A program made the translations under genes and the position numbers. From Acidobacteriaceae bacterium (GTDB taxonomy: Bacteria > Acidobacteriota > Terriglobia > Terriglobales > Acidobacteriaceae), in the NCBI GenBank assembly GCA_003134655.1, contig PLBY01000063.1, forward strand, positions 401 through 64,400: a stretch of DNA of 64,000 bases, written 5' to 3'. This document shows, in pieces, positions 41,000 to 62,628 of this stretch (position 1 is the stretch's first letter; each line of letters starts with the position of its first letter). The notes under the pieces were generated by a model. That model searched no databases and had not been told where the DNA came from. It was given only the letters and a program-made list of their open reading frames with translations.

Positions 41000-41014
41000 G
41001 TTCTGGACTTCTCC

Positions 41015-42915: not shown

Positions 42916-42937
42916 AAGTGGTCCCTAAGCGTTTCGC

Positions 42938-44509
42938 TTAAACTCCAACCGTGTCTTTATGCTCGTCCGGACTCTTGTCCCGGTTCCAGAACTTCAGCTT
43001 GCTGTTTCCGTTTTCCGGGACCACGACGCCCACCCACGGAACCGCCGCCAACAAGGGCAGGTCCAGAGCTGCTTCGGCATCGGCTTCGGTGCGGATCGAT
43101 TGGTCACGCAACTCGAACCACATCGCCAGACCGATTCCCAGAGCCAGCCCGGCACCGACGCCAACACCAAGGAAGATCCAGATATTCGGGAAGCTCGGAG
43201 AGTCCGGCAGGCTCGCCGGTTGGATCTCACTCATGCGCTCGCCCTGGGCCTGATTGGTCATATTCGACGTAAGATCGGCGGTGCTTTTCTTGGAAAGCAT
43301 ATCCTGATAATTCTTGTTCGCGCTGTCGTAGTCGTTCTTGAGCCTGCTGTAGGTTTCCTCTAGTCCCGGGCTCAGGTTCAAGTGTTGCTGGTACTGCGCG
43401 ATGAGTGGTTGCAGCCTCTTCCGCTCGCGCGTAGCCTCTGCAATTGCGTCCTCATCGTGGTGAAGTTGCTGCCGCAATTGCCGTATCTCGGGCGGTTCCA
43501 TCGCCGAGGCCTTCTCGTTGCTTGCTTCCGGCGCGTCCTCCGATGCCTTGTTGATTTCCGCAAGTTTCCTTCTCACTTCGGCGATGTTGGCCTTGGCCTT
43601 CATCACATCCGGATGGTCATCCGTATAGCGCGTCTGCAGGTCGATCAATTGAGTCTGCAAGTCGGATAACTGCTTTTGCAGCGTCTGCGGATTCGTCGAG
43701 GATTGTGTCGATTTCCACGCCGCCAACTGCTGCGCGAGCGCCGCCTGGTTAAAAGACTTGTCCTGTTCCGCCAGATTCAGGTTTTGGGTGTTACGGTCAT
43801 CCTGCTGGTTCAACCCCTGCAATATTTTCAGGTTGTTGTCTTGGTCCGTGGGAAGCTGCCCAAGGTGGGCGTTCTTGAAATCCGCCAGATCGCGGCCCAC
43901 AGCGTCGAGTTTGGCCTTCGCGTCCTCCAGCCCTTGCTTCAGCACATCGACGGTTCCCTTAGCGTTCTCTTGGATGAACTTCATGTTCTTGTCGATGATC
44001 TTCGAGGTCAGCGCCTCACAAACTCGTTGGGCGTCCCTCGGGTTCGAGGCCATGTAAGACACCATGAATCCGGGTGATTGGCTCTGCCCAGGTTTCTTCC
44101 TCAACGTTGAACCTGTGATCTGAGAGAGATCGGAGAACGGAGCACCCACCAGCGCCGGTTGGTTGCGCATATCATCTAAAGTGCCATCTATTTGTTGCGG
44201 GGTTCTATTCGGAAATAGCTGCGTCAGCATCGGCCGCATTTCGCTATCACTGGTCGCCAGCGCTCTCAGCATGCCGATGCGTGTCTGCAAATCGTCCGAA
44301 ACCACCGGTTGCACCATGCTCTCCGGCACCTTCTGACTCTCAATCAGCACCAGGGACGTCGAGGTGTACTTGGCGTAGTACCGGTTCACGACCAGGTAGG
44401 CAAGAAATCCCAGCAACGTCGCACCCACCACCGGAATAAGGATCACCTTCGCTCGCCGGCGCAGCATCGCCAGATAATCGTCCATCGTCAATTCGCGATT
44501 CTGAATCAT
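42938..44509 (-). CDS. Polysaccharide chain-length determinant (Wzz/PCP, PEP-CTERM-locus type)
   Basis: From MIQNRELTMDDYLAMLRRRAKVILIPVV (N-terminal TM). Long coiled-coil periplasmic region. C-terminal TM WIFLGVGVGAGLALGIGLAMW. Confidence 0.8.
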   Translation of the reverse strand: MIQNRELTMDDYLAMLRRRAKVILIPVVGATLLGFLAYLVVNRYYAKYTSTSLVLIESQKVPESMVQPVVSDDLQTRIGMLRALATSDSEMRPMLTQLFPNRTPQQIDGTLDDMRNQPALVGAPFSDLSQITGSTLRKKPGQSQSPGFMVSYMASNPRDAQRVCEALTSKIIDKNMKFIQENAKGTVDVLKQGLEDAKAKLDAVGRDLADFKNAHLGQLPTDQDNNLKILQGLNQQDDRNTQNLNLAEQDKSFNQAALAQQLAAWKSTQSSTNPQTLQKQLSDLQTQLIDLQTRYTDDHPDVMKAKANIAEVRRKLAEINKASEDAPEASNEKASAMEPPEIRQLRQQLHHDEDAIAEATRERKRLQPLIAQYQQHLNLSPGLEETYSRLKNDYDSANKNYQDMLSKKSTADLTSNMTNQAQGERMSEIQPASLPDSPSFPNIWIFLGVGVGAGLALGIGLAMWFELRDQSIRTEADAEAALDLPLLAAVPWVGVVVPENGNSKLKFWNRDKSPDEHKDTVGV

Positions 44510-44579
44510 CCTCGTATTCCTTCTGGCGGTTTCCCTCAACCTTGCAAGGCAAGGACGAAAACTCGCCGTCCTTTGAAAA

Positions 44580-46157
44580 TCAGTCAATCCGGATCGGCCG
44601 GGGGGTCCAATCCAATCCAAAAGTCACCAATTGCCGGTTCGAAATCCGGTTGCACAGAGTATTGGGCAAGCAGTACGACTGGTCGAACGCCAACTCGTTA
44701 AACTGGTAGCTGACAAATGCGTGGAAGTCCCGCCCAAACGCGCGGTGCAACCCACCCCCGATGAAGCCATACTGATTGCTGGTGGCGTCGTTGGCAGGAC
44801 AAGCGTTTTGGGAAGTCGACGTCTGCGAACTTGTGCATTCGATCACCTGCTGCTCAGTCAGGGGCTGCAACCGGCTGTTGTACGCATACCCGATGTCGGT
44901 GAATGCGTTCCAAACTCGCGTTAGAGGTCGGGTCGCGGTCAACCGCACGATGTTATTCTGCGTCCCCGCAAACACGCCCGACCCGCTGGTTTCGTAACGT
45001 TGAAAACTCAGATCCAACGATGTTTTCGTAAACTTGTAGCGCAACCGGGCCTGCGCCGCCACTCCGAGCTTCGTGTTCTTGAGGGTCGCGGAACCTAAGG
45101 AATCTCCTACGGCAGTACAGAGAAGGAGGGGAACCGTAGGATCACTGCACACGGCACTCTGGGTATCGATGAAGGTAAACTGCGGTCCCGCCCCCAGCAG
45201 CAAGTCCATCCGCCCTGAAATCCGGTGCCCGTACATCCCTTGGATAACGTGGGTATGAAACGCCGTCCCCTCGACTGAGAAATCGAACCCCTGATACCCA
45301 TAAACCAGCGCGATCTGAGTATGCGACGTGAGTATGCGGTTGTATCCCACCTGTGCCGAGGTCTGCGAGCTGCCGATAAATGCAGAGCCCGTCGATGCGT
45401 CGTTTCCGTAAAAATGCGTGAAGGCATATCCGCCGGCCGCCGTGATGGCTGACTTGGGTGTGAGGTTCTCGGAAATATCCCCGACGCTCACGTTCATGAT
45501 GCGCGGAGTCAGACCCAGGGTTCCCATGGCGGTGCCGCTCCAGAAACTGGAGAAGGCGGTGCCGCCGAGCGATCCAATCCCCTGCGACCCCTGCGAACCG
45601 TAGGCTCCCCCGAAATTGCCTTCAGGCAGATAGCTGAAGCTGTCACGCAGTGACAATTCTCCCCGCTTCCAGGTGATCTTCTGGTCGAGATCCATTTGTT
45701 GCAGTAACTTGCCGCCCTGTCCCTGCGAGGAGTAATACCCGCCGCCGCCCATATAGTCGAGAGCCAGATCGTAGTTACTCCACAACCGTTTCAACGTCAC
45801 GCTTCCCAGCGCGCGGGTAATGGAACTGACCCCGGATCCTCCTGCGACGTTGCCCGCGTTGGTCTGCGCCGACTCGCTGAATGTCGCTCCCGGTTGCACA
45901 TAACTCAGCGGCGCCGCATGCGGCTCCAGAGAGGGCAGATCCAATCCAGACAGCGGCGGATTCTCGCTCACGGGAGGCGGCGCATTCTCCTGTCCATAGG
46001 CCGGTATCGGCTCCTGCGGATTGTTCTGCGGCGCAGGCTCCTGCTGGCCGCTCGGCGCCGGCTCAGTCGACGGCGGCGTGGAACTGTCTTGGGCCCATGC
46101 TCCACTCAGCGCAAAAACCAGCATGCCCAGGATCCAGATGCTCTGAAGTTTTCTCAT
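44580..46157 (-). CDS. Outer-membrane beta-barrel protein of the EPS export module
   Basis: Signal peptide MRKLQSIWILGMLVFALSGAWAQ. Pro/Gln-rich linker, then alternating beta-strand pattern with many aromatic-Gly motifs. No family name confidently assigned. Confidence 0.65.
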   Translation of the reverse strand: MRKLQSIWILGMLVFALSGAWAQDSSTPPSTEPAPSGQQEPAPQNNPQEPIPAYGQENAPPPVSENPPLSGLDLPSLEPHAAPLSYVQPGATFSESAQTNAGNVAGGSGVSSITRALGSVTLKRLWSNYDLALDYMGGGGYYSSQGQGGKLLQQMDLDQKITWKRGELSLRDSFSYLPEGNFGGAYGSQGSQGIGSLGGTAFSSFWSGTAMGTLGLTPRIMNVSVGDISENLTPKSAITAAGGYAFTHFYGNDASTGSAFIGSSQTSAQVGYNRILTSHTQIALVYGYQGFDFSVEGTAFHTHVIQGMYGHRISGRMDLLLGAGPQFTFIDTQSAVCSDPTVPLLLCTAVGDSLGSATLKNTKLGVAAQARLRYKFTKTSLDLSFQRYETSGSGVFAGTQNNIVRLTATRPLTRVWNAFTDIGYAYNSRLQPLTEQQVIECTSSQTSTSQNACPANDATSNQYGFIGGGLHRAFGRDFHAFVSYQFNELAFDQSYCLPNTLCNRISNRQLVTFGLDWTPRPIRID

Positions 46158-46165
46158 CGCTTTCC

Positions 46166-46795
46166 TTACGGAACCACCACCGTGTCGCCCGGTTTCAGTT
46201 GGATGTTCTGTTCGGGGTGATTTCCTTTGATCACTTCCTTGTAGTTGAACGGCAATTTCTCCTGTTTGCCGTTCTCCGTGCGCAGCAGGTAAATCCCTTT
46301 GACATTGGCAAATTGCGTGAAACCCGCCTGCGACAGCGCTTGCAACATCGTCATGTGCGGCAGCAAAGCCATCGGCCCGGTGTGTACAACTTCTCCGGTC
46401 ACAAAAATGCGCCGGCTGTTCATCGCCATCACCACCACGGTCACCCGCGGATCCGCGATGAATTTCTTCAGTTTTTCGGTAATCGAATCCTTCAGCTGCA
46501 ACGGAGTCAGGCCCGCCGCTGGAATATCGTTCAGCAGCGGCATTGAGATCTTTCCGTCCGGGCGTACTGGCAGGGTTTCCGAAAGATCCGGTTCCTTCCA
46601 GACCGTAATGCGCAGCTGGTCGTCGGCTCCAATCGAATAATCGGAATCAGAAGATGCCTCTGACCCCTGCACAGTTGCTGCCGGCTTCGCATTCTTGTCT
46701 GCCTCGGTCTTCTCTGCACCGCTGGTCTGCGCCAGCAGTCCCGCTGCCAGTAAACCCATCCCCATCAACACTGCCAGTTTCATCGCTTTCGTCAT
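46166..46795 (-). CDS. Polysaccharide export protein (Wza-like; Poly_export + SLBB)
   Basis: YSIGADDQLRITVWKEPDLSETLPVRPDGKISMPLLNDIPAAGLTPLQLKDSI and C-terminal LKPGDTVVVP. Confidence 0.85.
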   Translation of the reverse strand: MTKAMKLAVLMGMGLLAAGLLAQTSGAEKTEADKNAKPAATVQGSEASSDSDYSIGADDQLRITVWKEPDLSETLPVRPDGKISMPLLNDIPAAGLTPLQLKDSITEKLKKFIADPRVTVVVMAMNSRRIFVTGEVVHTGPMALLPHMTMLQALSQAGFTQFANVKGIYLLRTENGKQEKLPFNYKEVIKGNHPEQNIQLKPGDTVVVP

Positions 46796-47793
46796 ACGGT
46801 CTCCGCGGAGTTAGGACGCTCCGTTCCTTCAAATCCAATTTGCTTCAACTTGTAGAGCAAAGCCTTGTAGCTGATCTGCAGTTCCTCCGCGGCCCGCCGC
46901 CGGTTCCAGCGGGTGCGCGTCAATGTGTTCAGGATCAGCTCCCTTTCCGCCTCGCGCGAGGCCGCCCGCGACGCTGCCTTCAGAGAAATTCCTCCTCCGT
47001 TGACGCCCGCCTCGGGCTTGCGCAACAAAGCGCGCAGACCGCCCAGGGCCACCTGCTCATCTCCCAGCGCCACCAGCACCCGGGCCGCGTCTTCCAGTTC
47101 CCGCAAGTTCCCTGGCCACGAATAATCGAGAAACAGGCGCAGGGTCTCGGCGCTCAGGTCAGGAACCGTACGACAGAAATCCCGCGCATACTTGCGCAGA
47201 AAGTGCCCCATCAAAAACGCAATGTCTTCTTTCCTCTGGCGCAATGGAGGCAGCCGCAGACACACACCGCTGATGCGGTAATAGAGATCCTCGCGCAACC
47301 GCCCCCGCTTGACTTCCACTTCCAGATCACGGGCGCTTCCACAAATCAGCCGGGTGCGATGGCTTGCGGCCACGCGTTTCCCATGCGATTGCGGTAACGC
47401 CTCCAGCAGGCGGGTCTGGCACTCCTGACTCAAGTCGGCCAACTCTTGCAGATAGATCGTTCCGGTGCTTGGCTGCGCGCCGTCGTCTTCTTGTTCCCGC
47501 AGAATCTCCAGGTCTTCTGGCTCGAGTCCTAGACACTGAAACCAACGGAAGGGCTGCGCGCTGCGTTGCGACATTTGATGGATGCGCTGCGCCGTGGCGT
47601 GCTTGCCCGCTCCCGGCTCAGCGAGCACGAGGACGGGAACATCGCTCTGCGCCAGTTCCCGGATCACTGCTTCCACCGGCCGCATGCTCGCGCTCACACC
47701 TTCCACGAACGCAAGTCCGGCCGGCTCGGCCGCCGAGCCTTCTCCGCTTTTCGCACGAGTTGGCAAGAAGTTGCCCATTTTTACCTTTTCCAC
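46792..47793 (-). CDS. EBP-like (sigma54-activator-fold AAA+ plus Fis-type HTH) regulator with degenerate ATPase and no GAFTGA loop
   Basis: Colinear with NtrC-type central domains (LREDLYYRISGVCLRLPPLRQRKEDI, WPGNLRELE, HTH RWNRRRAAEELQISYKALLYKLK). Walker A is AEPGAGKH, Walker B is IYLQEL, and GAFTGA is absent. Possible alternative start ATG 47778. Confidence 0.8.
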   Translation of the reverse strand: MEKVKMGNFLPTRAKSGEGSAAEPAGLAFVEGVSASMRPVEAVIRELAQSDVPVLVLAEPGAGKHATAQRIHQMSQRSAQPFRWFQCLGLEPEDLEILREQEDDGAQPSTGTIYLQELADLSQECQTRLLEALPQSHGKRVAASHRTRLICGSARDLEVEVKRGRLREDLYYRISGVCLRLPPLRQRKEDIAFLMGHFLRKYARDFCRTVPDLSAETLRLFLDYSWPGNLRELEDAARVLVALGDEQVALGGLRALLRKPEAGVNGGGISLKAASRAASREAERELILNTLTRTRWNRRRAAEELQISYKALLYKLKQIGFEGTERPNSAETV

Positions 47794-47841
47794 TTTATGC
47801 AGGGGACGGCCGATGCCCCCACGATTCGCTGTAGTTCTCAG

Positions 47842-47857
47842 AGCACGAGGATTGCCA
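47842..47857 (-). promoter_or_regulatory. Candidate sigma54 (-24/-12) promoter for the EPS operon
   Basis: Minus strand reads TGGCAATCCTCGTGCT (GG-N10-GC spacing correct), about 35-50 nt upstream of the regulator start. Confidence 0.4.
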
Positions 47858-48250
47858 CTGCGGTGAGTTCTGCCGACAAAGACAGAGATTCTATTGCACC
47901 TATTGTTTTCAATAACTTAGGACAAAAAGACTGAACCGGCGGGGGATGTTCCAGGATCTGGTCAGAATTCCGTTGCCCTGTGACTAGGGGATTTGTGGGA
48001 AAAACTTTTCTCACTTTGGGTGGCTCACTCTGCCACAGCTGCCACCCACTTTTTCACAAGTCGAGCGCCTTGAATTGAATTCTGCGGGGGCAACCTAAGG
48101 CCCATCCATCAAGCATAGTGGCCCGTACCGACCTCCGAAAGTTACCCCAGTAAGCCACCTCGGTACCGGAGTTTGCATTGCGCACCCGCGCTGTTTCGCT
48201 TATTCTCGAAGTTCCCCACCGCACAAATTCCGGTTCCCGTGGTCCAATAG

Positions 48251-49849
48251 GTGCAAACCGAGCAAGTGCATACCGAGCCCGAGCAAAGCGAGTCGTCAAC
48301 CGCCCGCCCGGCGTCAGCTGTCCTCAGAGCCGTTCCACTCTGGCAAGTGGGCATCCTGGCGGCGCTTTTGGTCTGGCTTTATTGGCCGACTCTCGTACGC
48401 CTGGTCCATCAGTGGCGGACCGATGACAATACCTCACACGGGTTCATCGTCCCTTTGTTCTCCGCCTTCGTGATCTGGCAGCAGCGCGATCGCCTCGCTC
48501 GGATCCTCACTCGGCCATCCTGGTCCGGCCTGGCCGCTCTGGTGGCCGGCCTGGGAGTTCTCATCTTAGGCCGCATGGGCGCGGAACTCTTCCTCGAGCG
48601 CTCTTCGGTGCTGCTGGTTCTGGCCGGGCTGGTAATCCTTCTTATCGGATGGAATTTTTTCCGCGCTGTGTTGTTCCCCTGGGCATTCCTGCTGATGATG
48701 ATCCCCATTCCCACCATCGTTCTGAATCAGATCACCTTCCCGCTACAACTGCTCGCCTCGCAGGTCGCTGCCACAGTGCTCCCCGTGTTCGGAGTTCCGG
48801 TCCTGCGCGAGGGCAACGTAATCAATCTGGCTGCCATGCCTCTCGAAGTGGCCGAGGCCTGCAGCGGCATTCGCTCTCTCATGTCTCTGGTGGCGCTCGC
48901 GATCATCTACGGATATCTGCTGGAAAAGCGCCTCTGGGTGCGCTGGTTGCTCGCTCTCGCCGCCGTGCCCATCACGGTTTTCGCCAACGATGTCCGCATT
49001 GTCGGCACCGGATTGCTCGTCCAGTATTGGGGTCCCGAGGCAGCCGAGGGCTATTTCCACGCTTCCTGGGGATTGATCACCTTCGCCATTTCTCTGCTCA
49101 TGTTCTACGGTCTGCACTCACTCATCCGCTTCTTTTTCCCCGAGAAGGGCGATGAGTCGCTCACAGCGGGCACTCCGGCAAGAATGACGGTGTTCCCGGT
49201 TGTGAAGAGCTCCACCACAAGTTTCGTCCTGGCCACTCTGCTGATCGCCAGCGCGGCCGTGCTCCTTCACGCACGCGCAGGCAGCGAAGTCTTTCCGCCA
49301 CGTCTTGAGCTGAAGGAGTTCCCCACGCAATTAGGCGACTGGACCGATGAGGATCGGGCAATCGAACAGGGGTCCCTCGATGTACTCAAGCCGAGTGATT
49401 ATCTTCTGCGGGTCTACTGGAACCCGGAAAAAACTCGGTACATCGATCTGTTCATCCCTTTTTACCGCAGCCAGCGTGTCGGAGAGTCCCCCCACTCGCC
49501 ACAGCACTGCCTCCCCGGATCAGGCTGGAGCCCGCTGGAAAACGAGCGCATCACTCTCACCATCCCAGGTCACGAACCGTTTCCCGTTAACCGCTATCTG
49601 ATTGCGAAAGGCGACTCCCGGCAACTCGTTCTTTACTGGTTCTGGGCGCATAATCGCGGAGTCGCCAGCGAGTACTGGGTCAAATACTACTTGGTGAAAG
49701 ATTCCATCAAGATGAACCGCAGCGACGGTTCCCTGGTACGCGTTACGACCCCGCTCTATCCCGGCGAGACAGCCGATGCCGCGCAGCAGCGCCTTCTTCC
49801 GTTCGTAGAGAAAGTTGTGCCTCTGCTGGACAGTTACGTTCCGCGCTAA
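48251..49849 (+). CDS. Exosortase (EpsH/Xrt family) fused to a C-terminal EpsI-family domain
   Basis: WRTDDNTSHGFIVP, MMIPIP, EVAEACSGIRSL (catalytic Cys context), FANDVRIVGTG, then an extra TM and an EpsI-like periplasmic domain (FPTQLGDW..., SPHSPQHCLPGSGW, LVLYWFW). Confidence 0.9.
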   Translation: MQTEQVHTEPEQSESSTARPASAVLRAVPLWQVGILAALLVWLYWPTLVRLVHQWRTDDNTSHGFIVPLFSAFVIWQQRDRLARILTRPSWSGLAALVAGLGVLILGRMGAELFLERSSVLLVLAGLVILLIGWNFFRAVLFPWAFLLMMIPIPTIVLNQITFPLQLLASQVAATVLPVFGVPVLREGNVINLAAMPLEVAEACSGIRSLMSLVALAIIYGYLLEKRLWVRWLLALAAVPITVFANDVRIVGTGLLVQYWGPEAAEGYFHASWGLITFAISLLMFYGLHSLIRFFFPEKGDESLTAGTPARMTVFPVVKSSTTSFVLATLLIASAAVLLHARAGSEVFPPRLELKEFPTQLGDWTDEDRAIEQGSLDVLKPSDYLLRVYWNPEKTRYIDLFIPFYRSQRVGESPHSPQHCLPGSGWSPLENERITLTIPGHEPFPVNRYLIAKGDSRQLVLYWFWAHNRGVASEYWVKYYLVKDSIKMNRSDGSLVRVTTPLYPGETADAAQQRLLPFVEKVVPLLDSYVPR

Positions 49850-49981
49850 CGAGATTCCTTCAATCGCGATCAAAGTATGACTCCAGTAACTGTTTTCCTC
49901 GGTTACCTTGCAGTATCATGAGGCGTTGTGCGGAGGAATGCCCTCGTGTGCCTTCCGCATCCGCAGTTGGAGAATCCCAAT

Positions 49982-52297
49982 ATGAGTCGCTCCGTGTCCG
50001 TCCGTTTGCTTCTGGCCTGCTCCCTTCTGCTTGTTGCGTTTACCGGCTGCTCCCGTGACCCCAACGTGCGCAAGCAGAAATATTTCGAAAGCGGCGAAAA
50101 ATATTTTGCGGAGGGCAAGTACCGCGAGGCGGAAATCCAGTATCGCAATGCCATCCAGGTTGATTCCCGCTTCGCCCAGGCCCACTACCAACTCAGCCAG
50201 GCCTACCTCAAGCTGGGCGACAGCAACCGCGCCTTCCAGGAATTGAACCGTGCCGTTGAACTTGCTCCCGATAACTATCGTGCCCATACTGATCTCGCGA
50301 ACCTTCTCGTCACGGTAAGAAATCCCGACGGCAGTACGGTTCCGGACACTCTCAAGCAGGCAAAGGTCCACCTCGATATCCTCCGCGACAAGCAGCCCAA
50401 CAGCCCCGAAACCCACGAGGCCTGGGCCAACTATTACGGGGCGCAAAGCAATATTGCCGCTGCCATGCAAGAGATGCAGCAGGCCATCGCCGCCGACCCC
50501 AACCGCTCCGAGTCCTATCTGTTGCTTGCCCTGTTCCAACTCCGCTCCAACCTGCCCGACCAGGCCGAGTCCAATTTCAAGAAGGCAGCCGAAACCGATC
50601 CTAAAGCCATCAACGCTCAATTGGCTCTGGGCGGCTTCTACCAGTCGCGGAACCGCTTGCCTGAAGCCGAAGCGCAGTATAAACACGCCATCGGAGTTGC
50701 CCCGAAAAACCCGGCGCCGCGCGCTGCCCTGGTCCGGTTGCTGATGCAAGAAGGCAAGAAGGACGAGACTGAATCCTTCCTGCGGCAAACCAAGAAGGAT
50801 CTTTCCGATAATCCCGAAGGCTATCGCATGCTCGGCGACTTCTACGCGACTTTCGATATCGACAAAGCCACTGCCGAATACAGTTCGCTTTATAACGAGC
50901 ACCCAAAAGATATTCAGGTCAAGAAGAACTACATCCAACTCCTGATCCTGAAGAACCGCCTCGACGAAGCCACCAAACTCGACAACGAGATCCTGAAGGC
51001 CAACGCCCACGACGTGGAAGGCCTCGTGTTCAGGGCCCAGGTCCAGCTTCGCCAGAATGACGCCAACGGCGCCGTGGACTCGCTGCAGAGCGCGCTCCGC
51101 AACGATCCTGACAACGCAGTCGCCCACTACCAGTTGGGAAATGCTTTCGCCCTGCAGCACAATGACAGCCGCGCAGAATCGGAGTGGCGTGAGGCAGTCA
51201 GACTCCGTCCGGACCTGACCGATGCGCTGCGCTCCCTGGCGGCCCTGGAATTGCGCCGGGGCGATATCGATGCCCTGCTCCAGACCGCGCAGCAGATCAT
51301 CACCGCCCAGCCGTATTCACCGGACGGCTTTATCTTCAAAGGCATTGCGGATCTCGCCCGCCTGAAATACAACGACGCTCAGCAGGACGCCGAACACGCC
51401 ATGCAGCGGGCACCCCAGATTCCTGCTCCCTACGTCCAGATGGGCACCATTCAGCTTGCGCAGAAGCATTACCCTGAGGCGGAGAAGTTCTACCAGCAGG
51501 CGCTCGATAAGGATCCTTCTTCCGCCGAGGGCCTCAGCGGCCTGATGAACACTTATTTCGCGCAGAAGGAATACGACAAGGCGATCGTAGCGGCCAACAC
51601 TCAAATCGCCAAGTCTCCCAACAACGCCAATTTCTACGACCTGCTCGGCACCGCGCTCTTCAACGGCAAGAAAGATCTGCCCGGCGCCGAAGCCGCCCTG
51701 CACAAAGCCATCGAGCTCGACAAGAACAACTCCGATGCCATCGAAAAACTCGGCAAAGTGCAAGTGCAGGAGGGCGCCGCTGACAAGGCTCTCGCTCTCT
51801 ACCAGCAATCCATTAAAGACAATCCGCGGGAAGTCACCTTTTATATTCTTTCCGGTGAATTGTATGAAGCGAAAAAGGACTGGGATCACGCCAAAGGCAT
51901 GTACCAGCAGGCGCTCAGCATTTCCCCCGATCATCCTCTCGCTTCCAACAATCTCGCCTACGTGATTCTCGAGCAGGGCGGCAACGTAGATGTCGCGATG
52001 GGCCTGGCGCAGACGGCGCGCCGCGGCATGCCCGACTCGCCCAACGCCGCCGATACGCTTGGCTGGGCCTACTATCAGAAGGGCGTCTACCAGTCCGCGA
52101 TCGGTCAGTTTCAGGCAGCCTTGCGGCTGGCCGAAAAGCGTGGCGATCCCGACGACGCCGACTTCCACTACCACCTCGGCGTCGCGTATCAGAAAGCCAA
52201 CCAGGACGCGCAGGCCCGCCAGCAATTGGAGAAGGCTGTAAGGCTAAGTCCCAACCACACCGACGCCAAGAAAGCCTTGTCGGAACTCCACGGCTAG
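49982..52297 (+). CDS. prsT: PEP-CTERM-system TPR-repeat lipoprotein (PrsT-like)
   Basis: Lipoprotein signal LLLACSLLLVAFTGC from ATG 49982. About 770 aa of consecutive TPR units (YRNAIQVDSRFAQAHYQLSQAYLKLGD...). Adjacent to the exosortase. Confidence 0.8.
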   Translation: MSRSVSVRLLLACSLLLVAFTGCSRDPNVRKQKYFESGEKYFAEGKYREAEIQYRNAIQVDSRFAQAHYQLSQAYLKLGDSNRAFQELNRAVELAPDNYRAHTDLANLLVTVRNPDGSTVPDTLKQAKVHLDILRDKQPNSPETHEAWANYYGAQSNIAAAMQEMQQAIAADPNRSESYLLLALFQLRSNLPDQAESNFKKAAETDPKAINAQLALGGFYQSRNRLPEAEAQYKHAIGVAPKNPAPRAALVRLLMQEGKKDETESFLRQTKKDLSDNPEGYRMLGDFYATFDIDKATAEYSSLYNEHPKDIQVKKNYIQLLILKNRLDEATKLDNEILKANAHDVEGLVFRAQVQLRQNDANGAVDSLQSALRNDPDNAVAHYQLGNAFALQHNDSRAESEWREAVRLRPDLTDALRSLAALELRRGDIDALLQTAQQIITAQPYSPDGFIFKGIADLARLKYNDAQQDAEHAMQRAPQIPAPYVQMGTIQLAQKHYPEAEKFYQQALDKDPSSAEGLSGLMNTYFAQKEYDKAIVAANTQIAKSPNNANFYDLLGTALFNGKKDLPGAEAALHKAIELDKNNSDAIEKLGKVQVQEGAADKALALYQQSIKDNPREVTFYILSGELYEAKKDWDHAKGMYQQALSISPDHPLASNNLAYVILEQGGNVDVAMGLAQTARRGMPDSPNAADTLGWAYYQKGVYQSAIGQFQAALRLAEKRGDPDDADFHYHLGVAYQKANQDAQARQQLEKAVRLSPNHTDAKKALSELHG

Positions 52298-52336
52298 AGC
52301 CCGCTCGATATTCCGACTCAAGGACCAAAACAAAAA

Positions 52337-52354
52337 CCCCGCCTCGCGGCGGGG
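52337..52354. terminator. Bidirectional rho-independent terminator between convergent prsT-like and PEP-CTERM genes
   Basis: CCCCGCC-tcgc-GGCGGGG stem-loop flanked by an A-run (caaaaacaaaaa) on the left and TTCTGTTT on the right. Confidence 0.7.
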
Positions 52355-52383
52355 TTCTGTTTCATGAAGTGCAAAAAACTGCT

Positions 52384-52992
52384 TTAGCCCTTCAGCTTGC
52401 GACGAACCAGTCCAGCCAGACCGATCAACCCAGTTCCCAACAGGCTCAACGAGCCCGGTTCCGGAACTACGATGTTCGTGTCACCGCTCGAAATGGTCGT
52501 GCTGCCGTTGAAGTAGCCTCTGCCGGTGTTGATCGTCAACTGCACGGTCACACCTACGGTCGCCGCTCCGGAGCCGGTCCAGCCCGTTAGGGCGCCGGTC
52601 AGAGTGTAGTTATGCGTTCCGTTGGCCAGAGTCACCAGCGTCCAGGTCACAGGACCGTCAAACGTTCCCGTAAACAGGGTTCCGTTCGGAACTCCGCTGG
52701 TGCCGTTTCCAGTGATGGTGAACCATCCACCACCCGCGAATGTGCCGCCCATTTGCAACGAACCGCTCGTGAGGGCACCGGTTGAGAAGCCGACGCTGCC
52801 CAGGTTGTTCCCTGTGATCAGCCCGCCTCCATTGAGCCCATTAACGGCAATCAAGACGGATCCGCTCAGCGAAAGTCCCGCGCTCGAACCCGACAAGGTA
52901 CCGCCACTATTGGTGTAGTCTACGCTGCTGCCGGCAAACATCGCCGTTGGCAGGGCCAGTGCCAGTACAGCAAGCAAGAGGATTTTCTTCAT
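52384..52992 (-). CDS. PEP-CTERM sorting-domain protein (Gly/Ser/Thr-rich secreted protein)
   Basis: Signal peptide MKKILLLAVLALALPTAMFA. Canonical C-terminus VPEPGSLSLLGTGLIGLAGLVRRKLKG (PEP motif, TM, basic cluster). AGGAG RBS. Confidence 0.9.
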   Translation of the reverse strand: MKKILLLAVLALALPTAMFAGSSVDYTNSGGTLSGSSAGLSLSGSVLIAVNGLNGGGLITGNNLGSVGFSTGALTSGSLQMGGTFAGGGWFTITGNGTSGVPNGTLFTGTFDGPVTWTLVTLANGTHNYTLTGALTGWTGSGAATVGVTVQLTINTGRGYFNGSTTISSGDTNIVVPEPGSLSLLGTGLIGLAGLVRRKLKG

Positions 52993-53090
52993 TGTACTTT
53001 CTCCTAGGAGTTATTCCGCCTGGGTCTTCAAATCTCCGACGACCTGTGGCTCATACCTTATGAGATAGGCTAAGGTACTGCCCCTTAATA

Positions 53091-53106
53091 TGCACCTCGA
53101 GTACCA
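53091..53106 (-). promoter_or_regulatory. Candidate sigma54 (-24/-12) promoter of the PEP-CTERM protein gene
   Basis: Minus strand reads TGGTACTCGAGGTGCA, against consensus TGGCAC-N5-TTGCW. The GG and GC invariants are at the correct spacing, about 100 nt upstream of the ATG. Confidence 0.55.
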
Positions 53107-53245
53107 AAGTGCGCAGTTCTGTAAGCCACCGGCTGAGAAGGACTTATGGGATATTCCAGACTTGCGCGTGGGGTGGAAAGTGAAAACGAATGCGCAACAT
53201 CGCAAAAATACGGGAGAAGCCGCGCCTGGGGCGGCAAGTGGGGGA

Positions 53246-53284
53246 ATGAAGTCGCAGGATGAAGTCGCAGGATGAAGTCGAAGT
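53246..53284. repeat. Three tandem 13-bp repeats ATGAAGTCGCAGG / ATGAAGTCGCAGG / ATGAAGTCGAAGT
   Basis: Read directly from the sequence. Located between the EBP stop (53303) and the sigma54-like promoter at 53091-53106. Confidence 0.9.
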
Positions 53285-53302
53285 TGCGAGATGCTACCGT
53301 GC

Positions 53303-54364
53303 TCAGTCCGCTGCTATGTCCTGCTTGGGGCTATCCGCGTCCCGCCGCTTGACCACCCGGTTCGAGGGCAGTCCGGCTTCGCGGATCTTGTAGAGCAAGG
53401 CGCGATAGCTGATGCTCAACGCCCGCGCCGTCTGCTTTCGGTTCCAATGACAATTCTGCAGAACCTTCAGGATGACTTTCCGCTCTAACTCGCGTACTGC
53501 CTGGCGGGTCAGCTTCTTCAGCGAAATCTGCCCGTCGACTGGGATTTCCGCGTTGAAGAAGTCGGTGGCCCGCGGCGCCAGATCGGACGAAATCACTTCT
53601 TCGTTGCCCAGAATCACGTAGCGCTTCACCAGGTTTTCCAACTCGCGGATGTTGCCCGGCCAGTGATATTTGCGCAACTCTGACATCAATTCGCTGGAGA
53701 GAGCGCGCGCCCGGCAGTTGTACTTCCGGTTGTGATACTCGAGAAAATACGCGACCAGTTCAGGAATGTCGCTCGCCCGTTCGCGCAGCGGAGGCAGGTG
53801 CAGATTCACCACATTGATCCGGTAAAACAGGTCCGATCGGAACGTGCCGTTTTCAATCTCCTGTTCCAGTTTGCGGTTGGTCGCGCACACCACCCGCACT
53901 TCTACTTTCTTGTCTTCCTGCGCGCCGATGCGGCAGAACTGCCCGTCCTGCAGGAGTTGCAGCAACTTCGACTGCAACGACATATCCAACTCGGAGATTT
54001 CGTCCAGAAACAGCGTGCCCCGGTGCGCCATCTCCACGCGCCCCGGCTTCATTCCGTAAGCGCCCGTGAACGCGCCCTTTTCGTAGCCGAACAATTCGCT
54101 CTCGAGCAGCGTGCCCGGAATCGCCGGACAATTCACTTTCACCCACGGGCCAGTGCGCCAGGGCGAAGTCGCATGAATCATGCGTGCGATGATGTCTTTG
54201 CCCGTTCCGCTCTCGCCCTGGATCAGAACCGGGACGTTGGCACTCGCCAGTTTGGTCAGGCGGTCGCGCACCGCCCGCATGCCCTCGGTGCGCCCGAAAA
54301 CAATCGCGTCGGGCGGCATTTCCCCCAAAGGCTGGACGAGTGAATTCACACTACTGGTTGTCAT
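53303..54364 (-). CDS. Sigma54-dependent activator (EBP) lacking any N-terminal sensory/receiver domain
   Basis: AAA+ core starts at about residue 25. Walker A GESGTGKD, ESELFGYEKGAFTGA, Walker B LFLDEI, C-terminal Fis-type HTH (HWNRKQTARALSISYRALLYKIRE). Confidence 0.9.
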   Translation of the reverse strand: MTTSSVNSLVQPLGEMPPDAIVFGRTEGMRAVRDRLTKLASANVPVLIQGESGTGKDIIARMIHATSPWRTGPWVKVNCPAIPGTLLESELFGYEKGAFTGAYGMKPGRVEMAHRGTLFLDEISELDMSLQSKLLQLLQDGQFCRIGAQEDKKVEVRVVCATNRKLEQEIENGTFRSDLFYRINVVNLHLPPLRERASDIPELVAYFLEYHNRKYNCRARALSSELMSELRKYHWPGNIRELENLVKRYVILGNEEVISSDLAPRATDFFNAEIPVDGQISLKKLTRQAVRELERKVILKVLQNCHWNRKQTARALSISYRALLYKIREAGLPSNRVVKRRDADSPKQDIAAD

Positions 54365-54401
54365 GGCTGGTTTCTACCAATTGGGGGGAGAGACACTACC
54401 C

Positions 54402-54417
54402 TGCACCCGGAGAGCCA
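54402..54417 (-). promoter_or_regulatory. Candidate sigma54 (-24/-12) promoter of the domain-less EBP gene
   Basis: Minus strand reads TGGCTCTCCGGGTGCA, 38 nt upstream of the ATG. GG-N10-GC spacing correct. Confidence 0.45.
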
Positions 54418-54564
54418 AAGGCACCCCGGCACACGACCGACCACCCAACTCTAACTTATGTAGTTGAAGAGTATCAACTTACCAAAGAGCAGGATGGGCA
54501 TACCCCGGTAATCAGGGATTGGTCCCAAGGGTAACACTCTGGAAGGCAGGATGCGCAAACATTT

Positions 54565-54942
54565 TCACACCGCAGAAGCGATTTTCCGCCGTCGGCCATT
54601 TGGACTGCCAGGCAGAAGCAACGGACGCGCGAACTTCAGGCCGAGCAAGTAGTACCCTTCGGCCGGAGTGCTGCGCAGAGCCTTGGCACGCAGGGTCCGG
54701 GACGCATTTGGCAATAACGCTAGCGCCGCCACCGGCGCACTGGGGATTTCCAGCCGGATCTGAGCAATCGCGGGCAAAGCCCGCCGAATTGCGACCAACA
54801 TCCCGCCCGCGCTCACGTTCAAGGCGGTCGCAAACTCAAGAAAGTCCTTGCCCTTCCCATCACGGCTGCGAACGAAAACGGGGACAGCCAGCGGCAACCT
54901 TGCCCACTTCCGCCGCTCATTTCCCGCTTTTCCGCCGTTCAT
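54565..54942 (-). CDS. Single-domain PilZ protein (c-di-GMP receptor type)
   Basis: ERRKWARLPL (RRxxxR) followed by ALNVSAGGMLV ((D/N)xSxxG) at the canonical spacing. 125 aa. Confidence 0.75.
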   Translation of the reverse strand: MNGGKAGNERRKWARLPLAVPVFVRSRDGKGKDFLEFATALNVSAGGMLVAIRRALPAIAQIRLEIPSAPVAALALLPNASRTLRAKALRSTPAEGYYLLGLKFARPLLLPGSPNGRRRKIASAV

Positions 54943-55171
54943 GCAGACTTCTCCATCGCTCTAAGCCCCCACGTCGGGAGCACCTGAGGGGCCAAATCCC
55001 GGCCAAATTCCGTGCAGAACCGGGCTGGAACACTGAACTCCGCCCGTCTCGGACTGCAAAACCAGTAAAGGAGCGGCAGTTTTCCGCACTTATATTCGCT
55101 TTCTGTTCGATTCTCATAAGTCCAGCCGTCAGCCCCATAGGTCATCAAAAGTGCAACCTTTTGCTACACTT

Positions 55172-55187
55172 GGGTAATTCTCGTGCA
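55172..55187 (+). promoter_or_regulatory. Weaker candidate sigma54 promoter upstream of the kinase/regulator pair
   Basis: GGGTAATTCTCGTGCA shares the GG-N3-T-N4-GTGC layout of the three minus-strand candidates. About 110 nt upstream of ATG 55299. Confidence 0.3.
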
Positions 55188-55298
55188 TTTTCCGTTGACA
55201 ACAAATTGCGCCTGACATACGATTTTGTTACTGGCACTCGTGCTTCAAATGTCGGGTGCGGTTTCCCCTCTCCCCGTGTAAACCTGTGGTATTCCGTC

Positions 55299-56222
55299 AT
55301 GGCCAGTGTCCAAAAGAACACGTGTGTTTCTGACGCGGGAGGAATCCCGGAATCTATGCCAGTTGCTGCTACCCGACCTGACGGCGATGTACCCAGTCCG
55401 GAAAACTTGCTCCAGGAGTACAAGGAACTGCGCGAGCGTTTCCAGCGCACCACCAACGCCCTGGGCTCTGCCGCCCACGATCTCAAGACGCCGCTGTCGA
55501 TTCTGAACGGCTACGTGGATTTGCTGCAGAGCGAGAAGCTGGGCCCAATCAGCGACCGACAGCGTGAAGTCTTGCGCGACATGCAGGCCAGCGGACAGCG
55601 CCTGCAACAGTTTATTCAGGATTTCTTAACTTACAGTGCTCTCGAAACTGGGGGCCTGCGCATGCAGTTCGCGCCAGGCAACATCAACGATTGTCTGGCC
55701 GACGTATGCCGCTTGTGGTCGAATCGCTTTCAGGAACGAGGGTTGGCTCTCTATTTTCTCGCCAACGACAAACTGCCGGTTTTCCCCGTCGATTCCCCAA
55801 AACTGGAGCGCGTGATCTCGAATCTGCTGGAGAATTCCTTCAAGTTCACACCTCAGAGCGGGACGGTGTGGCTGCACGCCGAGCCCTACATGTGGGAACG
55901 CCGCGCCGCCGCTGGGCCTTCGCCTTCGGAGCGCCGCCGTCAGAGCGTCACTCAGCCCAACTCGGTCAAGGTCAGCGTGTCTGATACCGGGCCCGGAATT
56001 CCCCCGGAGTTTCATCAGGAAGTTTTTGACGATTTTTTCCGCCTTCCCAGCACCGAAGCCCAGGAGGGCACGGGATTGGGTCTCGCCATCGCGCGCCGCT
56101 TGGTGCACGGCATGGGCGGCAAGATCTGGGTCGAGAGTGATCCCGGCGCAGGCTGCAAATTTTCTTTCCTGATCCCGTTCAAACCAGCCGTGGCCGCCGC
56201 CAGCAAAGGGAAAAACCGATGA
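55299..56222 (+). CDS. Soluble histidine kinase (HisKA + HATPase_c only)
   Basis: From MASVQKNT. H-box SAAHDLKTPLS, N-box LLENSFKFT, G1 DTGPGI, G2 GTGLGLAI. No TM or sensor domain. The upstream 260 codons of the track ORF look non-coding. Stop overlaps the next start (ATGA). Confidence 0.85.
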   Translation: MASVQKNTCVSDAGGIPESMPVAATRPDGDVPSPENLLQEYKELRERFQRTTNALGSAAHDLKTPLSILNGYVDLLQSEKLGPISDRQREVLRDMQASGQRLQQFIQDFLTYSALETGGLRMQFAPGNINDCLADVCRLWSNRFQERGLALYFLANDKLPVFPVDSPKLERVISNLLENSFKFTPQSGTVWLHAEPYMWERRAAAGPSPSERRRQSVTQPNSVKVSVSDTGPGIPPEFHQEVFDDFFRLPSTEAQEGTGLGLAIARRLVHGMGGKIWVESDPGAGCKFSFLIPFKPAVAAASKGKNR

Positions 56223-57625
56223 AGCCAACCGCCAAGATTCTGCTGGTCGACGACGAACCCGGCATGCTCCGCTACATCAAAACGCTGCTGGAGGTGGACG
56301 ACTACAAAGTCGAAACCGCAACCACCGGCGAAGAAGCCCTGCAACAAGTAGAAAAGGGCCTGCAGCCCGACCTGGTGCTGCTCGACGTGCTCATGCCCGG
56401 CATCGACGGTCTGCAGACTCTCGAACAGCTGCGCCAGGTCCAACCCGGCATCAAGGTCGTGATGCTGTCCTGCGTCAACGACACGCGCAAGGTCGTACAC
56501 GCGATGAAGCTGGGCGCCCTCGACTACCTCACCAAGCCGTTTCAAAAAGCAGAACTGGATGCAGTCATCGATCTCAGCCTCGGTCAGGGCAAACAGACTT
56601 ACAGCGGAGAAATCGAGGAACTCTCCGAAGACGTCTTCTTCATCGCCGCTAGCCCCCAGATGCGCAAGATCCGCTCGCAAGCCGCGCTGGTCGCCAATGT
56701 AGACATCCCCGTGTTGCTGCTCGGCGAGAGCGGCACCGGCAAGGAAGTCCTCGGACGCCTGATCCACAAGCTTTCGCCGCGCGCCCATCGCATATTCCTC
56801 AAGGTGAATTGCGCCGCGGTTCCGGCCGACCTGCTTGAGAGCGAGTTGTTCGGCTACGAGCAGGGTGCGTTCACCGGCGCAACCCATGCCAAACCCGGCA
56901 AGTTCGAGCTGTGCAATCGCGGAACGATTCTGCTCGACGAAATCGGCGAAATGCCGCCGCTTCTGCAGGCCAAACTCCTGCACGTGTTGCAGGATCAGCA
57001 ATTCTCGCGCCTGGGCAGCCGTTCCGTCATCAAGGTCGATGTCCGCATCCTGGCCGCGACCAACATCAACATTCCCGAAGCTCTCGCCAACAAGCGCCTG
57101 CGCGAGGATCTCTACTACCGCCTCAACGCCTTCACCATGCAGATTCCGCCGTTGCGCGAGCGCAAAGAAGAGATTCCCATCCTGCTCAAGCACTCCATGT
57201 CGCGCATGGCCGAGCGTTACGCGCGCGCGCCGCTTCCGCTCTCACCGGCGCTGCTGCAGGCCTGCCAGAATCATTCCTGGCCCGGCAATCTTCGTGAGTT
57301 GAATAACTTCCTGAAGCGCTACTTGATTCTTGGAGACGAGAACCTGGCAGTCAGCGAACTGCTTCCCCGCAACGACGGCACTGGCGGAGGTCCCGGCGAT
57401 TCCTCTGCCCGCGGAGCTGAGCCGGGTGGCTTGAAATCTCTGGCGCGCACGGCCAAAGATGAAGCCGAAGCACAGGCCATCACGCAAGCTTTGGAACAGA
57501 CCAACTGGAACCGCAAACAGGCTGCCGCGATCCTGCAGATCAGTTACAAAGCCCTGCTCTATAAGATCCGGCAGTACGGCATTGCCGAAGCCAAAGGGCA
57601 CCACAAACTGTCTGCCGGAGCGTAG
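56219..57625 (+). CDS. NtrC-family response regulator / sigma54 activator (PrsR-like: REC + AAA+ + Fis HTH)
   Basis: REC with LVLLDVLMPGIDG, Walker A GESGTGKE, YEQGAFTGA, LLDEIGE, HTH NWNRKQAAAILQISYKALLYKIRQ. Confidence 0.9.
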   Translation: MKPTAKILLVDDEPGMLRYIKTLLEVDDYKVETATTGEEALQQVEKGLQPDLVLLDVLMPGIDGLQTLEQLRQVQPGIKVVMLSCVNDTRKVVHAMKLGALDYLTKPFQKAELDAVIDLSLGQGKQTYSGEIEELSEDVFFIAASPQMRKIRSQAALVANVDIPVLLLGESGTGKEVLGRLIHKLSPRAHRIFLKVNCAAVPADLLESELFGYEQGAFTGATHAKPGKFELCNRGTILLDEIGEMPPLLQAKLLHVLQDQQFSRLGSRSVIKVDVRILAATNINIPEALANKRLREDLYYRLNAFTMQIPPLRERKEEIPILLKHSMSRMAERYARAPLPLSPALLQACQNHSWPGNLRELNNFLKRYLILGDENLAVSELLPRNDGTGGGPGDSSARGAEPGGLKSLARTAKDEAEAQAITQALEQTNWNRKQAAAILQISYKALLYKIRQYGIAEAKGHHKLSAGA

Positions 57626-62333: not shown

Positions 62334-62628
62334 GTTGAAAGGCTTTCAGCTTCGTGTCCCTCCGCGTCGAAGCTCGATGGCCGTGAAGGCAGCAGAAAGT
62401 CGTCGGACTGACCGCGAGCAATGAGTCTGTGGGAGGACGCTGGGACAAGCTCTGCCAGACTCAAGCCGCGAAGCGGCGGCATGTGAAAGCCCGGCACGGA
62501 AGTGCCGGGTGAAAATAGAGAAAATCAACGAGTCCCGAAGGGACGGCACTCTGTTTGACGGACTCTCTCACTGAGGCTCCGCCGCTGTCGAAAATCGGGA
62601 GCCGGGAGCCAAGAGCCCGGAAGCCCGC

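Follow-up and report, generated by a model that had tools for sequence, protein, structure and literature searches.

A conserved set of predicted sigma-54 promoters, three of them with a shared upstream dyad, in an acidobacterial exopolysaccharide and PEP-CTERM locus

The 64-kb stretch of DNA described here (the window, by which we mean the whole of the sequence that was analysed) comes from the genome of an uncultured member of the Acidobacteriota (Acidobacteriaceae / 'Ca. Sulfotelmatobacter' relatives) and carries an exosortase locus with genes for an exopolysaccharide (EPS), a PEP-CTERM protein and several regulators. The original prediction had placed four similar sigma-54-type (-24/-12) promoters in this locus, upstream of the EPS operon, the PEP-CTERM gene, the gene for a 353-residue enhancer-binding protein (EBP) without a receiver domain (EBP353) and a histidine kinase/response regulator pair. 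Our comparative analysis indicates that the first three sites, together with two conserved sites beyond those four (54979-54994, minus strand, and 61692-61707, plus strand, each upstream of a PilZ gene), are probably genuine sigma-54 promoters, because GG-N10-GC has been selectively kept at them, consensus positions that had not been selected for are recovered and dyads upstream are conserved; the fourth site, in front of the kinase gene, is not needed for this reading. The locus as a whole would then be a module for exopolysaccharide and PEP-CTERM protein that depends in part on sigma-54, a core reading in which we place good, if not complete, confidence. The sites are as follows.

47842..47857, minus strand: predicted sigma-54 promoter of the EPS operon (site 1), TGGCAATCCTCGTGCT, 11.9 bits; predicted transcription start site (TSS) near 47831, 5' untranslated region (5'UTR) of ~53 nt.
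53091..53106, minus strand: predicted sigma-54 promoter of the PEP-CTERM gene (site 2), TGGTACTCGAGGTGCA, 13.0 bits; predicted TSS near 53080, 5'UTR of ~88 nt.
54402..54417, minus strand: predicted sigma-54 promoter of the EBP353 gene (site 3), TGGCTCTCCGGGTGCA, 11.2 bits; predicted TSS near 54391, 5'UTR of ~27 nt.
55172..55187, plus strand: fourth site of the original prediction (site 4), upstream of the kinase/regulator pair, GGGTAATTCTCGTGCA, 7.7 bits; unsupported as a conserved sigma-54 promoter.
54979..54994, minus strand: predicted sigma-54 promoter of the adjacent PilZ gene, TGGCCCCTCAGGTGCT; predicted TSS near 54968.
61692..61707, plus strand: predicted sigma-54 promoter of the second PilZ gene, TGGCAGAGGGATTGCT, 14.5 bits, the best sigma-54 match of the window.

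Checked against the letters of the window, the four 16-mers of the original prediction have the sequence, coordinates and orientation that were given for them, with GG and GC at the sigma-54 spacing, and the two further sites likewise show GG-N10-GC oriented toward the gene. The rate at which such a motif arises by chance had been put too low, at once per 4 kb per strand: in this window of 58% G+C, GG-N8-GTGC occurs about once per 2.7 kb per strand, and its 47 occurrences on both strands compare with 48.4 ± 6.8 in dinucleotide shuffles, so that there is no overall enrichment. It is positional placement and not overall frequency that carries the signal. With a sigma-54 weight matrix, by which sites 1-3 reach 11.2-13.0 bits and site 4 reaches 7.7 bits, only 11 positions in the whole window score at least 11 bits, and four gene-oriented ones lie in upstream non-coding DNA where 0.37 would be expected. 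At a threshold of at least 9 bits, the upstream non-coding DNA (5.8 kb) has seven gene-oriented matches where shuffles give 1.2; none of 1000 shuffles reaches seven, and all of these matches fall between 38.8 and 61.7 kb.

For the comparison, the GTDB genome collection was scanned with the exosortase, which gave 21 syntenic Acidobacteriota loci from metagenome-assembled genomes (MAGs), labelled Acidobacteriaceae, 'Ca. Sulfotelmatobacter' and similar, with an exosortase identity of 60-80%. Gene order is the same in nearly all 21, and the order PilZ-EBP353-PEP-CTERM as well as that of kinase and regulator is kept in 16-17 loci. The 330 nt upstream of each orthologous start codon were scanned and aligned; ten metagenome contigs (L001-L010) that are 98.7-100% identical to the window were comparatively uninformative. 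Orthologous loci are kin and their counts are not independent events, but invariant GG/GC and drifting spacers are compared inside the same alignments, and this contrast therefore needs no independence of the loci.

A column-by-column count on both strands showed that each of four intergenic alignments (EPS, PEP-CTERM, EBP353 and PilZ 54979) has exactly one position with GG-N10-GC in at least 90% of sequences; in every case this position holds the motif in 100% of sequences, on the gene strand only, and it is the predicted promoter, whereas the identity of spacer and flank columns is typically 10-60%. The EPS element reads (T/C)GGCA..-N4-.TGC(A/T) in 20/20 orthologs, 57-64 nt from the start codon, and L030, the most divergent locus, has the textbook site TGGCACTTGTATTGCA with 16.4 bits. 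Upstream of the PEP-CTERM gene, TTTGG.AC-N6-.GC is present in all 16 orthologs (93-106 nt from the start), upstream of EBP353 TTGG-N9-TGC in 17/17 (30-46 nt) and at the PilZ promoter at 54979 TTTGGC-N8-TGCt in all 17 (35-39 nt). For the second PilZ protein, one scan of metagenome contigs returned 80 loci, 69 of them with enough upstream sequence, and TGGca-N4-gaTtGCt is kept in 56 of these 69, at 167-369 nt from the start; in the window the site lies in a 700-nt intergenic region, about 241-251 nt upstream of the gene. The site is overlapped by an open reading frame (ORF), 61260-61721, for which Pfam gives no match and which is uncalled in an identical metagenome contig.

The pool of 108 unique orthologous sites from these five promoter classes recovers T-26 in 100/108, C-23 in 87, A-22 in 79, T-14 in 104 and W-11 in 108/108, five positions that played no part in the selection of the sites. 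The conserved positions are the canonical ones only, T-26, GG, C-23, A-22, T-14, GC and W-11, and position -15 is G or T (44/50). The letters GG-N3-T-N4-GTGC, through which the four sites were thought to resemble one another, do not fare as well, as the T five bases after GG and the G at -15 are unconserved among orthologs, and the sites have no special mutual similarity beyond the general sigma-54 consensus.

Transcription from a sigma-54 promoter requires an EBP that hydrolyses ATP and makes contact with sigma-54 through its GAFTGA motif, and the window has both candidate activators and candidate sites for them. A dyad, which we call UAS-I (upstream activating sequence I), stands ~80-150 bp upstream of the EPS, PEP-CTERM and EBP353 promoters in variants of TGNGAAAA-NN-TTTKCSCA.

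47996..48013, no strand assigned: UAS-I dyad of the EPS promoter, TGGGAAAAACTTTTCTCA / TGAGAAAAGTTTTTCCCA, ~145 bp upstream of -24 in the divergent exosortase/EPS intergenic region.
54552..54569, minus strand: UAS-I copy of the EBP353 promoter, TGTGAAAATGTTTGCGCA, ~145 bp upstream of -24.
53179..53196, plus strand: UAS-I copy of the PEP-CTERM promoter, AGTGAAAACGAATGCGCA, TGCGCA-N5-TTTCA in gene direction.
53303..54364, minus strand: EBP353, 353 aa; AAA+ domain with GESGTGK and GAFTGA, then HTH_8, and no N-terminal regulatory domain.
55299..57625, plus strand: histidine kinase (307 aa) and NtrC-type response regulator (468 aa).
46792..47778, minus strand: 328-aa EBP paralog, first gene of the EPS operon, without GAFTGA; split Sigma54_activat and HTH_8 matches (Pfam).

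A UAS-I matrix that was built without the window gives 28, 24 and 18 bits at the EBP353, EPS and PEP-CTERM dyads, the first being the top UAS-I score of the window, and the next best match in the 64 kb has 14 bits; in finer figures, such a matrix from other loci gives the EPS dyad 22-24 bits and the PEP-CTERM copy 17.9 bits. The EPS dyad is conserved in 20/20 orthologs, many of which have a perfect 8+2+8 palindrome, TGGGAAAA-NN-TTTTCCCA, and some TGTGAAAA..TTTTCCCA. At EBP353, TGTGAAAA-NN-TTTGCGCA is invariant in all 17 orthologs, and the PEP-CTERM copy is found in 15 of the 16, with 69-82 nt between its 3' end and the -24 motif downstream. The 14-bit match, at 14026-14043, was set aside as an activator site: it has three mismatches and a convergent gene on either side, and 0.9 such matches would be expected by chance. 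Because the upstream dyad is common to all three, the EPS, PEP-CTERM and EBP353 promoters most likely answer to a single EBP, or to several whose Fis-type recognition helices are near-identical.

Between dyad and promoter, the EPS intergenic region also has a match to the binding consensus of integration host factor (IHF).

47907..47919, plus strand: IHF-like site, TTTCAATAACTTA, a 12/13 match to WATCAANNNNTTR.

With at most one mismatch, it occurs at the same position in 17/20 EPS orthologs, with TCAA-N4-TT as the conserved columns, and the same match search found none at the other promoters.

Three EBP-type proteins had been counted in the locus. Two of them are intact: EBP353, whose orthologs are 88-96% identical, and the 468-aa regulator, which has a receiver domain, an AAA+ domain and HTH_8, both carry GESGTGK and GAFTGA, and so do their orthologs. 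The 328-aa protein is without GAFTGA: all 17 orthologs show a deletion of that region, AEPGAGK as Walker A and LQE for LDE (Asp to Gln) in Walker B, and its NCBIfam scores are far under every EBP cut-off, while the Fis-type helix-turn-helix (HTH) is intact. Because GAFTGA is lacking, the paralog is predicted to be unable to contact or activate sigma-54; competition at the dyads and action together with sigma-70 are possible roles for it. All three proteins have a near-identical Fis-type recognition helix, ISY(K/R)ALLYK(I/L)(K/R), and this fits related binding sites, the UAS-I variants. The locus thus encodes two intact EBPs and has conserved dyads, their candidate binding sites, at enhancer distance of three promoters.

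At the kinase/regulator operon the pattern is a different one, and the original claim of four sigma-54 promoters, borne out for EPS, PEP-CTERM and EBP353 by elements that every ortholog keeps, does not extend to it.

55195..55223, plus strand: sigma-70-type promoter of the kinase/regulator operon, TTGACA-N17-TACGAT, starting 8 nt 3' of site 4.

This is the best sigma-70 match (10/12) between 47.7 and 55.4 kb, and over 16/16 orthologs TTGACA does not vary and TAcGAT hardly does. We weighed an arrangement in which all four sites work, 55172-55187 included, so that the kinase/regulator pair controls its own expression through sigma-54, with site 4 either in tandem with the sigma-70 promoter or competing with it. 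There are precedents elsewhere, glnA for example, for sigma-54 and sigma-70 promoters that overlap or stand in tandem. In addition, 11/16 orthologs, the near relatives of the window among them, keep GG-N10-GC with T-14 and A-11 at site 4, and in three orthologs the site improves to TTGCA with 10.0 bits. The remaining five, however (L024, L025, L028, L029 and L031), have T for the G at -13 (TTTCA or TGTCA), and their kinase-leader intergenic region holds no replacement site above 6 bits; moreover, site 4 has G for T at -26, a letter that is seen in 0/108 of the unique sites of the clade, and no conserved dyad stands 80-150 bp upstream of it in the right orientation. The flanks TTGGGTAATTC / TTTTGCTACACTTGGGTAATTC and CATTTT.CGTTGACAA are nearly invariant with or without the GC, the reverse of the pattern at the other promoters, so the constraint on this stretch is not the -12 element. 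A start predicted from site 4 (~55198) would also sit inside the invariant -35 hexamer. We consider sigma-54 autoregulation of the pair unlikely on these grounds, and no better odds attach to the narrower form in which only some members of the clade use site 4 for sigma-54, as an auxiliary or competing site. Since the -13 G is lost in five of 16 orthologs and an invariant TTGACA-N17-TACGAT adjoins, it is more likely that the operon is driven by sigma-70 and that site 4 is part of an ordinary sigma-70 promoter region. The kinase leader has a possible stem-loop at 55233-55259 with compensatory changes noted by eye, for which RNAalifold on the alignment gives weak support (-1.65).

The exosortase operon, too, appears to be made independently of sigma-54.

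48266..52297, plus strand: exosortase (XrtD-like, fused to EpsI) and PrsT tetratricopeptide repeat (TPR) lipoprotein, divergent from the EPS operon.

Both proteins exceed their NCBIfam cut-offs (exosortase TIGR04152, 442 vs 400; PrsT TIGR02917, 344.5 vs 312.2), and a lipobox, ...FTGC, can be read after the ATG of PrsT at 49983. No conserved -24/-12 motif was found upstream of either gene, and upstream of PrsT nothing scores above 7.5 bits. The sequence at 48240-48255, TGGTCCAATAGGTGCA (10.5 bits), was rejected as a fifth site of the set, being present only in the window and L012 and overlapping possible start codons. The view of the exosortase system as a sigma-54 regulon can hence be kept for the EPS, PEP-CTERM and receiver-less EBP units but not for the exosortase-PrsT operon itself, whose transcripts appear to come from sigma-70-type promoters. 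In the more distant clade (L016, L017, L024-L029 and L031) a second copy of the palindrome TGGGAAA-N4-TTTCCCA lies nearer the exosortase gene, and the clade of the window has a remnant of it only.

The PilZ promoters differ from the UAS-I promoters in what lies upstream of them.

54565..54942, minus strand: PilZ-domain protein, 125 aa; Pfam PF07238, 31.6 bits vs a cut-off of 22.5.
55147..55169, no strand assigned: conserved block AAAGTGCAACCTTTTGCTACAC, upstream of both the PilZ promoter (by ~160 bp) and the sigma-70 -35 hexamer (by ~30-50 bp).
61959-62333, plus strand: second PilZ gene; Pfam PilZ, 37.1 bits.
61506-61521: dyad TGGCAC-N4-GTGGCG, ~170 nt upstream of the 61692 site.

A scan with the UAS-I matrix did not find UAS-I upstream of either PilZ promoter. 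The block at 55147-55169 is nearly invariant in 16-17 orthologs and is a motif distinct from UAS-I (4 bits by the UAS-I matrix), and a TGGCAC-N4-GTG(G/C)C dyad is present 124-197 nt further upstream in 20 of the 56 metagenome loci that keep the second PilZ promoter. The 61692 dyad is presumably a different enhancer and hence one for a different activator, and the differing upstream motifs of the PilZ promoters suggest that more than one activator is involved, possibly one encoded elsewhere. The 125-aa PilZ gene is always adjacent to and upstream of the EBP353 gene (synteny, 17 loci). The promoter and dyad of the second PilZ gene recur in many contigs from soil metagenomes, and the predicted leader of this gene is long, ~240 nt.

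Several observations weigh against sigma-54 control of the module as proposed above. The sigma-54 weight matrix is an approximation of the published consensus TGGCACG-N4-TTGCW, to which sites 1-3 have three mismatches each, with G instead of T at -15, and no RpoN box was found when the window and the full set of 111 loci (824 kb) were translated in six frames. The dyads are assigned to particular EBPs from sequence only, and of the two PilZ promoters one (54979) has no UAS-I and the other (61692) has a different dyad. Finally, the sigma-70 reading of the exosortase operon is a weak one, since only a TAT.CT box is conserved upstream of the exosortase gene and no sigma-70 hexamer pair passed the scan.

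Two further explanations were weighed. In the first, the sites do bind sigma-54 holoenzyme but the activators are EBPs encoded elsewhere, the dyads being operators of the GAFTGA-less paralog or of unrelated repressors. The different motifs upstream of the two PilZ promoters do argue that other activators exist, and a GAFTGA-less protein with the same HTH would be expected to bind similar DNA. However, the EBP353 and PEP-CTERM promoters carry the identical dyad, the gene order around both intact EBPs is kept in 16-17 loci, as noted above, and EBP genes are commonly adjacent to their targets. Related genomic associations have been analysed (PMC3162934). We regard activation from elsewhere as improbable. 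It is very improbable that the conserved TGG...TGC blocks are the sites of another factor, or 5'UTR or RNA elements, whose likeness to -24/-12 promoters is coincidental: sigma-54 itself and transcription starts at the sites are predictions, and each site has several mismatches to the full consensus, but five independent intergenic regions have exact GG-N10-GC on the coding strand only, 26-106 nt before the starts (241 nt in the case of the second PilZ gene), consensus letters reappear at positions that were not selected for, the locus has genes for two EBPs with GAFTGA, dyads stand at enhancer distance and the Rfam scan of the promoter regions found no RNA family.

Returning to sigma-54 control by activators of the locus itself, we propose the most economical wiring, in which we infer the use of sigma-54 holoenzyme, the pairing of EBPs with dyads and the order of the cascade. 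Five units would have -24/-12 promoters, namely the EPS operon, the PEP-CTERM gene, the EBP353 gene, the adjacent PilZ gene and the second PilZ gene 7 kb away. The soluble kinase, expressed from sigma-70, would phosphorylate the 468-aa NtrC-type regulator, and this regulator, or a constitutively active EBP353 acting on its own promoter, or both, would fire the UAS-I promoters (EBP353, PEP-CTERM and EPS), with the PilZ genes answering to other or additional activators. The outcome would be tight, joint induction of matrix polysaccharide, anchored protein and c-di-GMP (cyclic di-GMP) receptor proteins. EBPs that have no regulatory domain are active whenever they are present, and as EBP353 has no further domain, either its amount in the cell or a partner protein would have to determine its activity. 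Of the feed-forward or autoregulatory wiring that had been suggested, the part that runs through the receiver-less EBP is plausible, as a cascade or as positive autoregulation, since one and the same upstream element is found at its promoter and at that of the PEP-CTERM gene, but autoregulation of the kinase/regulator pair is not retained.

A more elaborate version, which we offer as speculation with a low chance of being right in full, would be a self-contained switch of three EBPs. In it, the sigma-70-expressed kinase and regulator would ignite the EBP353 promoter; EBP353 would then lock itself on via TGTGAAAA-NN-TTTGCGCA and fire the PEP-CTERM and EPS promoters; the ATPase-dead 328-aa paralog would compete for the dyads, as a delayed negative feedback, or drive the exosortase operon with sigma-70 via the divergent palindrome; and the adjacent PilZ protein could tie the switch to c-di-GMP, as PspA and HrpV restrain domain-less EBPs.

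The EPS promoter resembles the classical architecture of upstream activating sequence, IHF site and sigma-54 promoter known from nifH, glnHp2 and Pu, with a dyad ~145 bp upstream, an IHF match ~60 bp upstream of -24 and then GG-N10-GC, although here the IHF-like site is found at one of five promoters only and is predicted from a consensus match. EBPs without a regulatory domain are represented by PspF and HrpR/HrpS, and EBP353, an AAA+ domain with GAFTGA and an HTH and nothing else, is like them in this; unlike them, its gene is behind a sigma-54 promoter with the same dyad as its presumed target, and its conserved neighbour is a PilZ protein, with no recognisable PspA- or HrpV-like partner. 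The 328-aa paralog recalls Vibrio cholerae VpsR, an atypical regulator of matrix genes from the EBP family that makes no sigma-54 contact: it keeps the EBP fold and HTH without GAFTGA and is encoded with EPS genes, but it differs from VpsR in having no receiver domain and in its degenerate Walker A and B motifs.

The closest parallel is found in the Proteobacteria, where PEP-CTERM genes are single-gene units behind long intergenic regions, in which a 17-nt motif with TTTACA at its end is followed, after a spacer of 62.8 ± 10.6 nt, by a -24/-12 motif, and where these co-occur with PrsK, PrsR and PrsT; the data set of that study was without Acidobacteria (Haft 2006, PMC1569441). Here as well the PEP-CTERM gene is a single-gene unit, behind a 310-nt intergenic region, 98 nt separate its -24/-12 motif from the start (71 on average in that study, with a range of 23-221), 69-82 nt separate the 3' end of the upstream element from the sigma-54 motif (62.8 on average there, with a range of 32-92), a PrsT-family TPR lipoprotein scores above the TIGR02917 cut-off and a two-component pair with an NtrC-type regulator is present in the EPS/exosortase neighbourhood. 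The components themselves are other ones. The regulator scores 352.5 against a cut-off of 502.6 for PrsR (TIGR02915), its best match being AtoC with 382.9, also below cut-off, and the kinase, unlike PrsK, which is transmembrane and has an extra uncharacterised domain, is a soluble protein of 307 aa with HisKA and HATPase only and no transmembrane segment (maximum 19-residue hydropathy 1.04). In a comparison that covers the TTTACA end of the published motif only, TTTACA is present in 0/16 PEP-CTERM orthologs and at none of the other promoters; in its place the upstream element here ends in TTTTCAC/TTTCAT. Added to the published system are a receiver-less EBP under sigma-54, a GAFTGA-less EBP paralog, PilZ genes and an EPS operon behind a -24/-12 promoter. 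In Aquincola tertiaricarbonis, pepA is RpoN1-dependent with a mapped TSS and prsT is unaffected by disruption of rpoN1 (Xia 2023, PMC9850573), and in the window, similarly, the PEP-CTERM gene has a -24/-12 motif and the exosortase-PrsT operon has none; that system is betaproteobacterial, experimentally established and run by PrsK/PrsR, whereas the present one is computational only and has other regulators. Sigma-54 has also been linked more generally to exopolysaccharide and cell-envelope genes (Francke 2011, PMC3162934). In its predicted layout the locus thus shows an acidobacterial form of the proteobacterial control of PEP-CTERM genes by sigma-54, with non-orthologous regulators, and a literature search turned up no study of how exosortase systems are regulated in Acidobacteria.

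Among bacteria of soils and sediments, PEP-CTERM/exosortase systems are common and widely distributed, and their regulation has been examined in Proteobacteria only; the Acidobacteriota are among the most abundant soil bacteria and hard to culture. The logic by which substrate and polysaccharide are placed under sigma-54 and the sorting machinery under sigma-70 would, if the predicted promoters are right, recur in a second phylum. The set of promoters and activator sites yields targets in the form of predicted starts, a dyad consensus and candidate activators, which could be used to study the timing of matrix building in these organisms and to read soil metatranscriptomes, and the analysis brings to light a conserved degenerate EBP paralog.

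The other features of the promoter-bearing units are given below.

39617..46795, minus strand: remainder of the EPS operon, with Poly_export, a 525-aa protein, Wzz-like, AAA_22 ATPase, ParA/AAA_31 and Bac_transf sugar transferase genes.
52384..52992, minus strand: monocistronic gene of the 202-aa PEP-CTERM protein, with a signal peptide and a C-terminal VPEP-TM-RRK sorting signal.
52333-52358: bidirectional terminator downstream of the PEP-CTERM gene.

The genes of the EPS operon are tightly packed or overlapping, and the 202-aa protein is the only PEP-CTERM protein within the window. Near the PEP-CTERM promoter, a conserved ATAAG-NN-CTTAT-like palindrome lies at 53132-53149, 25-40 nt upstream of -24, and is perfect (TAAGTACTTA) in L019, and the 88-nt leader has conserved stretches that include a possible hairpin, CTCATA-AGG-TATGAG. 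Between the EBP353 gene and this promoter there is a 13-nt tandem repeat, GAAGTCGCAGGAT, in two full copies and a partial one (x2.5, ~53248-53290); it was rejected as an activator site, being absent from all other species, and its copy number is unchanged in the ten metagenome contigs that are 98.7-100% identical to the window. Upstream of EBP353, a nearly invariant block at 54449-54486, TTTGGTAAGTTGATACTCTTCAACTACATAAGTTAGAG, lies 30-70 nt before the -24 element and holds the inverted repeat AGTTGA-N6-TCAACT (54462-54479) as well as TTGATA-18-TAGAGT, which weakly resembles a sigma-70 promoter; an operator, a second promoter and a site of DNA bending are all possible roles for the block.

At the far end of the EPS region, the sequence at 38800-38815, TGGCGCCCTGGTTGCT, upstream of a glycosyltransferase gene, was rejected as a -24/-12 site, since most orthologs have other letters in place of GG or of GC. 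Conservation extends over the entire block, which keeps a constant distance of 17 nt to the neighbouring ORF and is probably coding or something else. The ORF at 38833-39402 (plus strand, 189 aa), divergent from the glycosyltransferase gene, has no Pfam match and shows 44-77% identity in 14 related loci. Just 3' of the second PilZ gene, at 62464-62509 on the minus strand, Rfam identifies an Acido-Lenti-1 RNA (RF01687) with 52.6 bits against a gathering score of 37, a match that fits the acidobacterial origin of the window.

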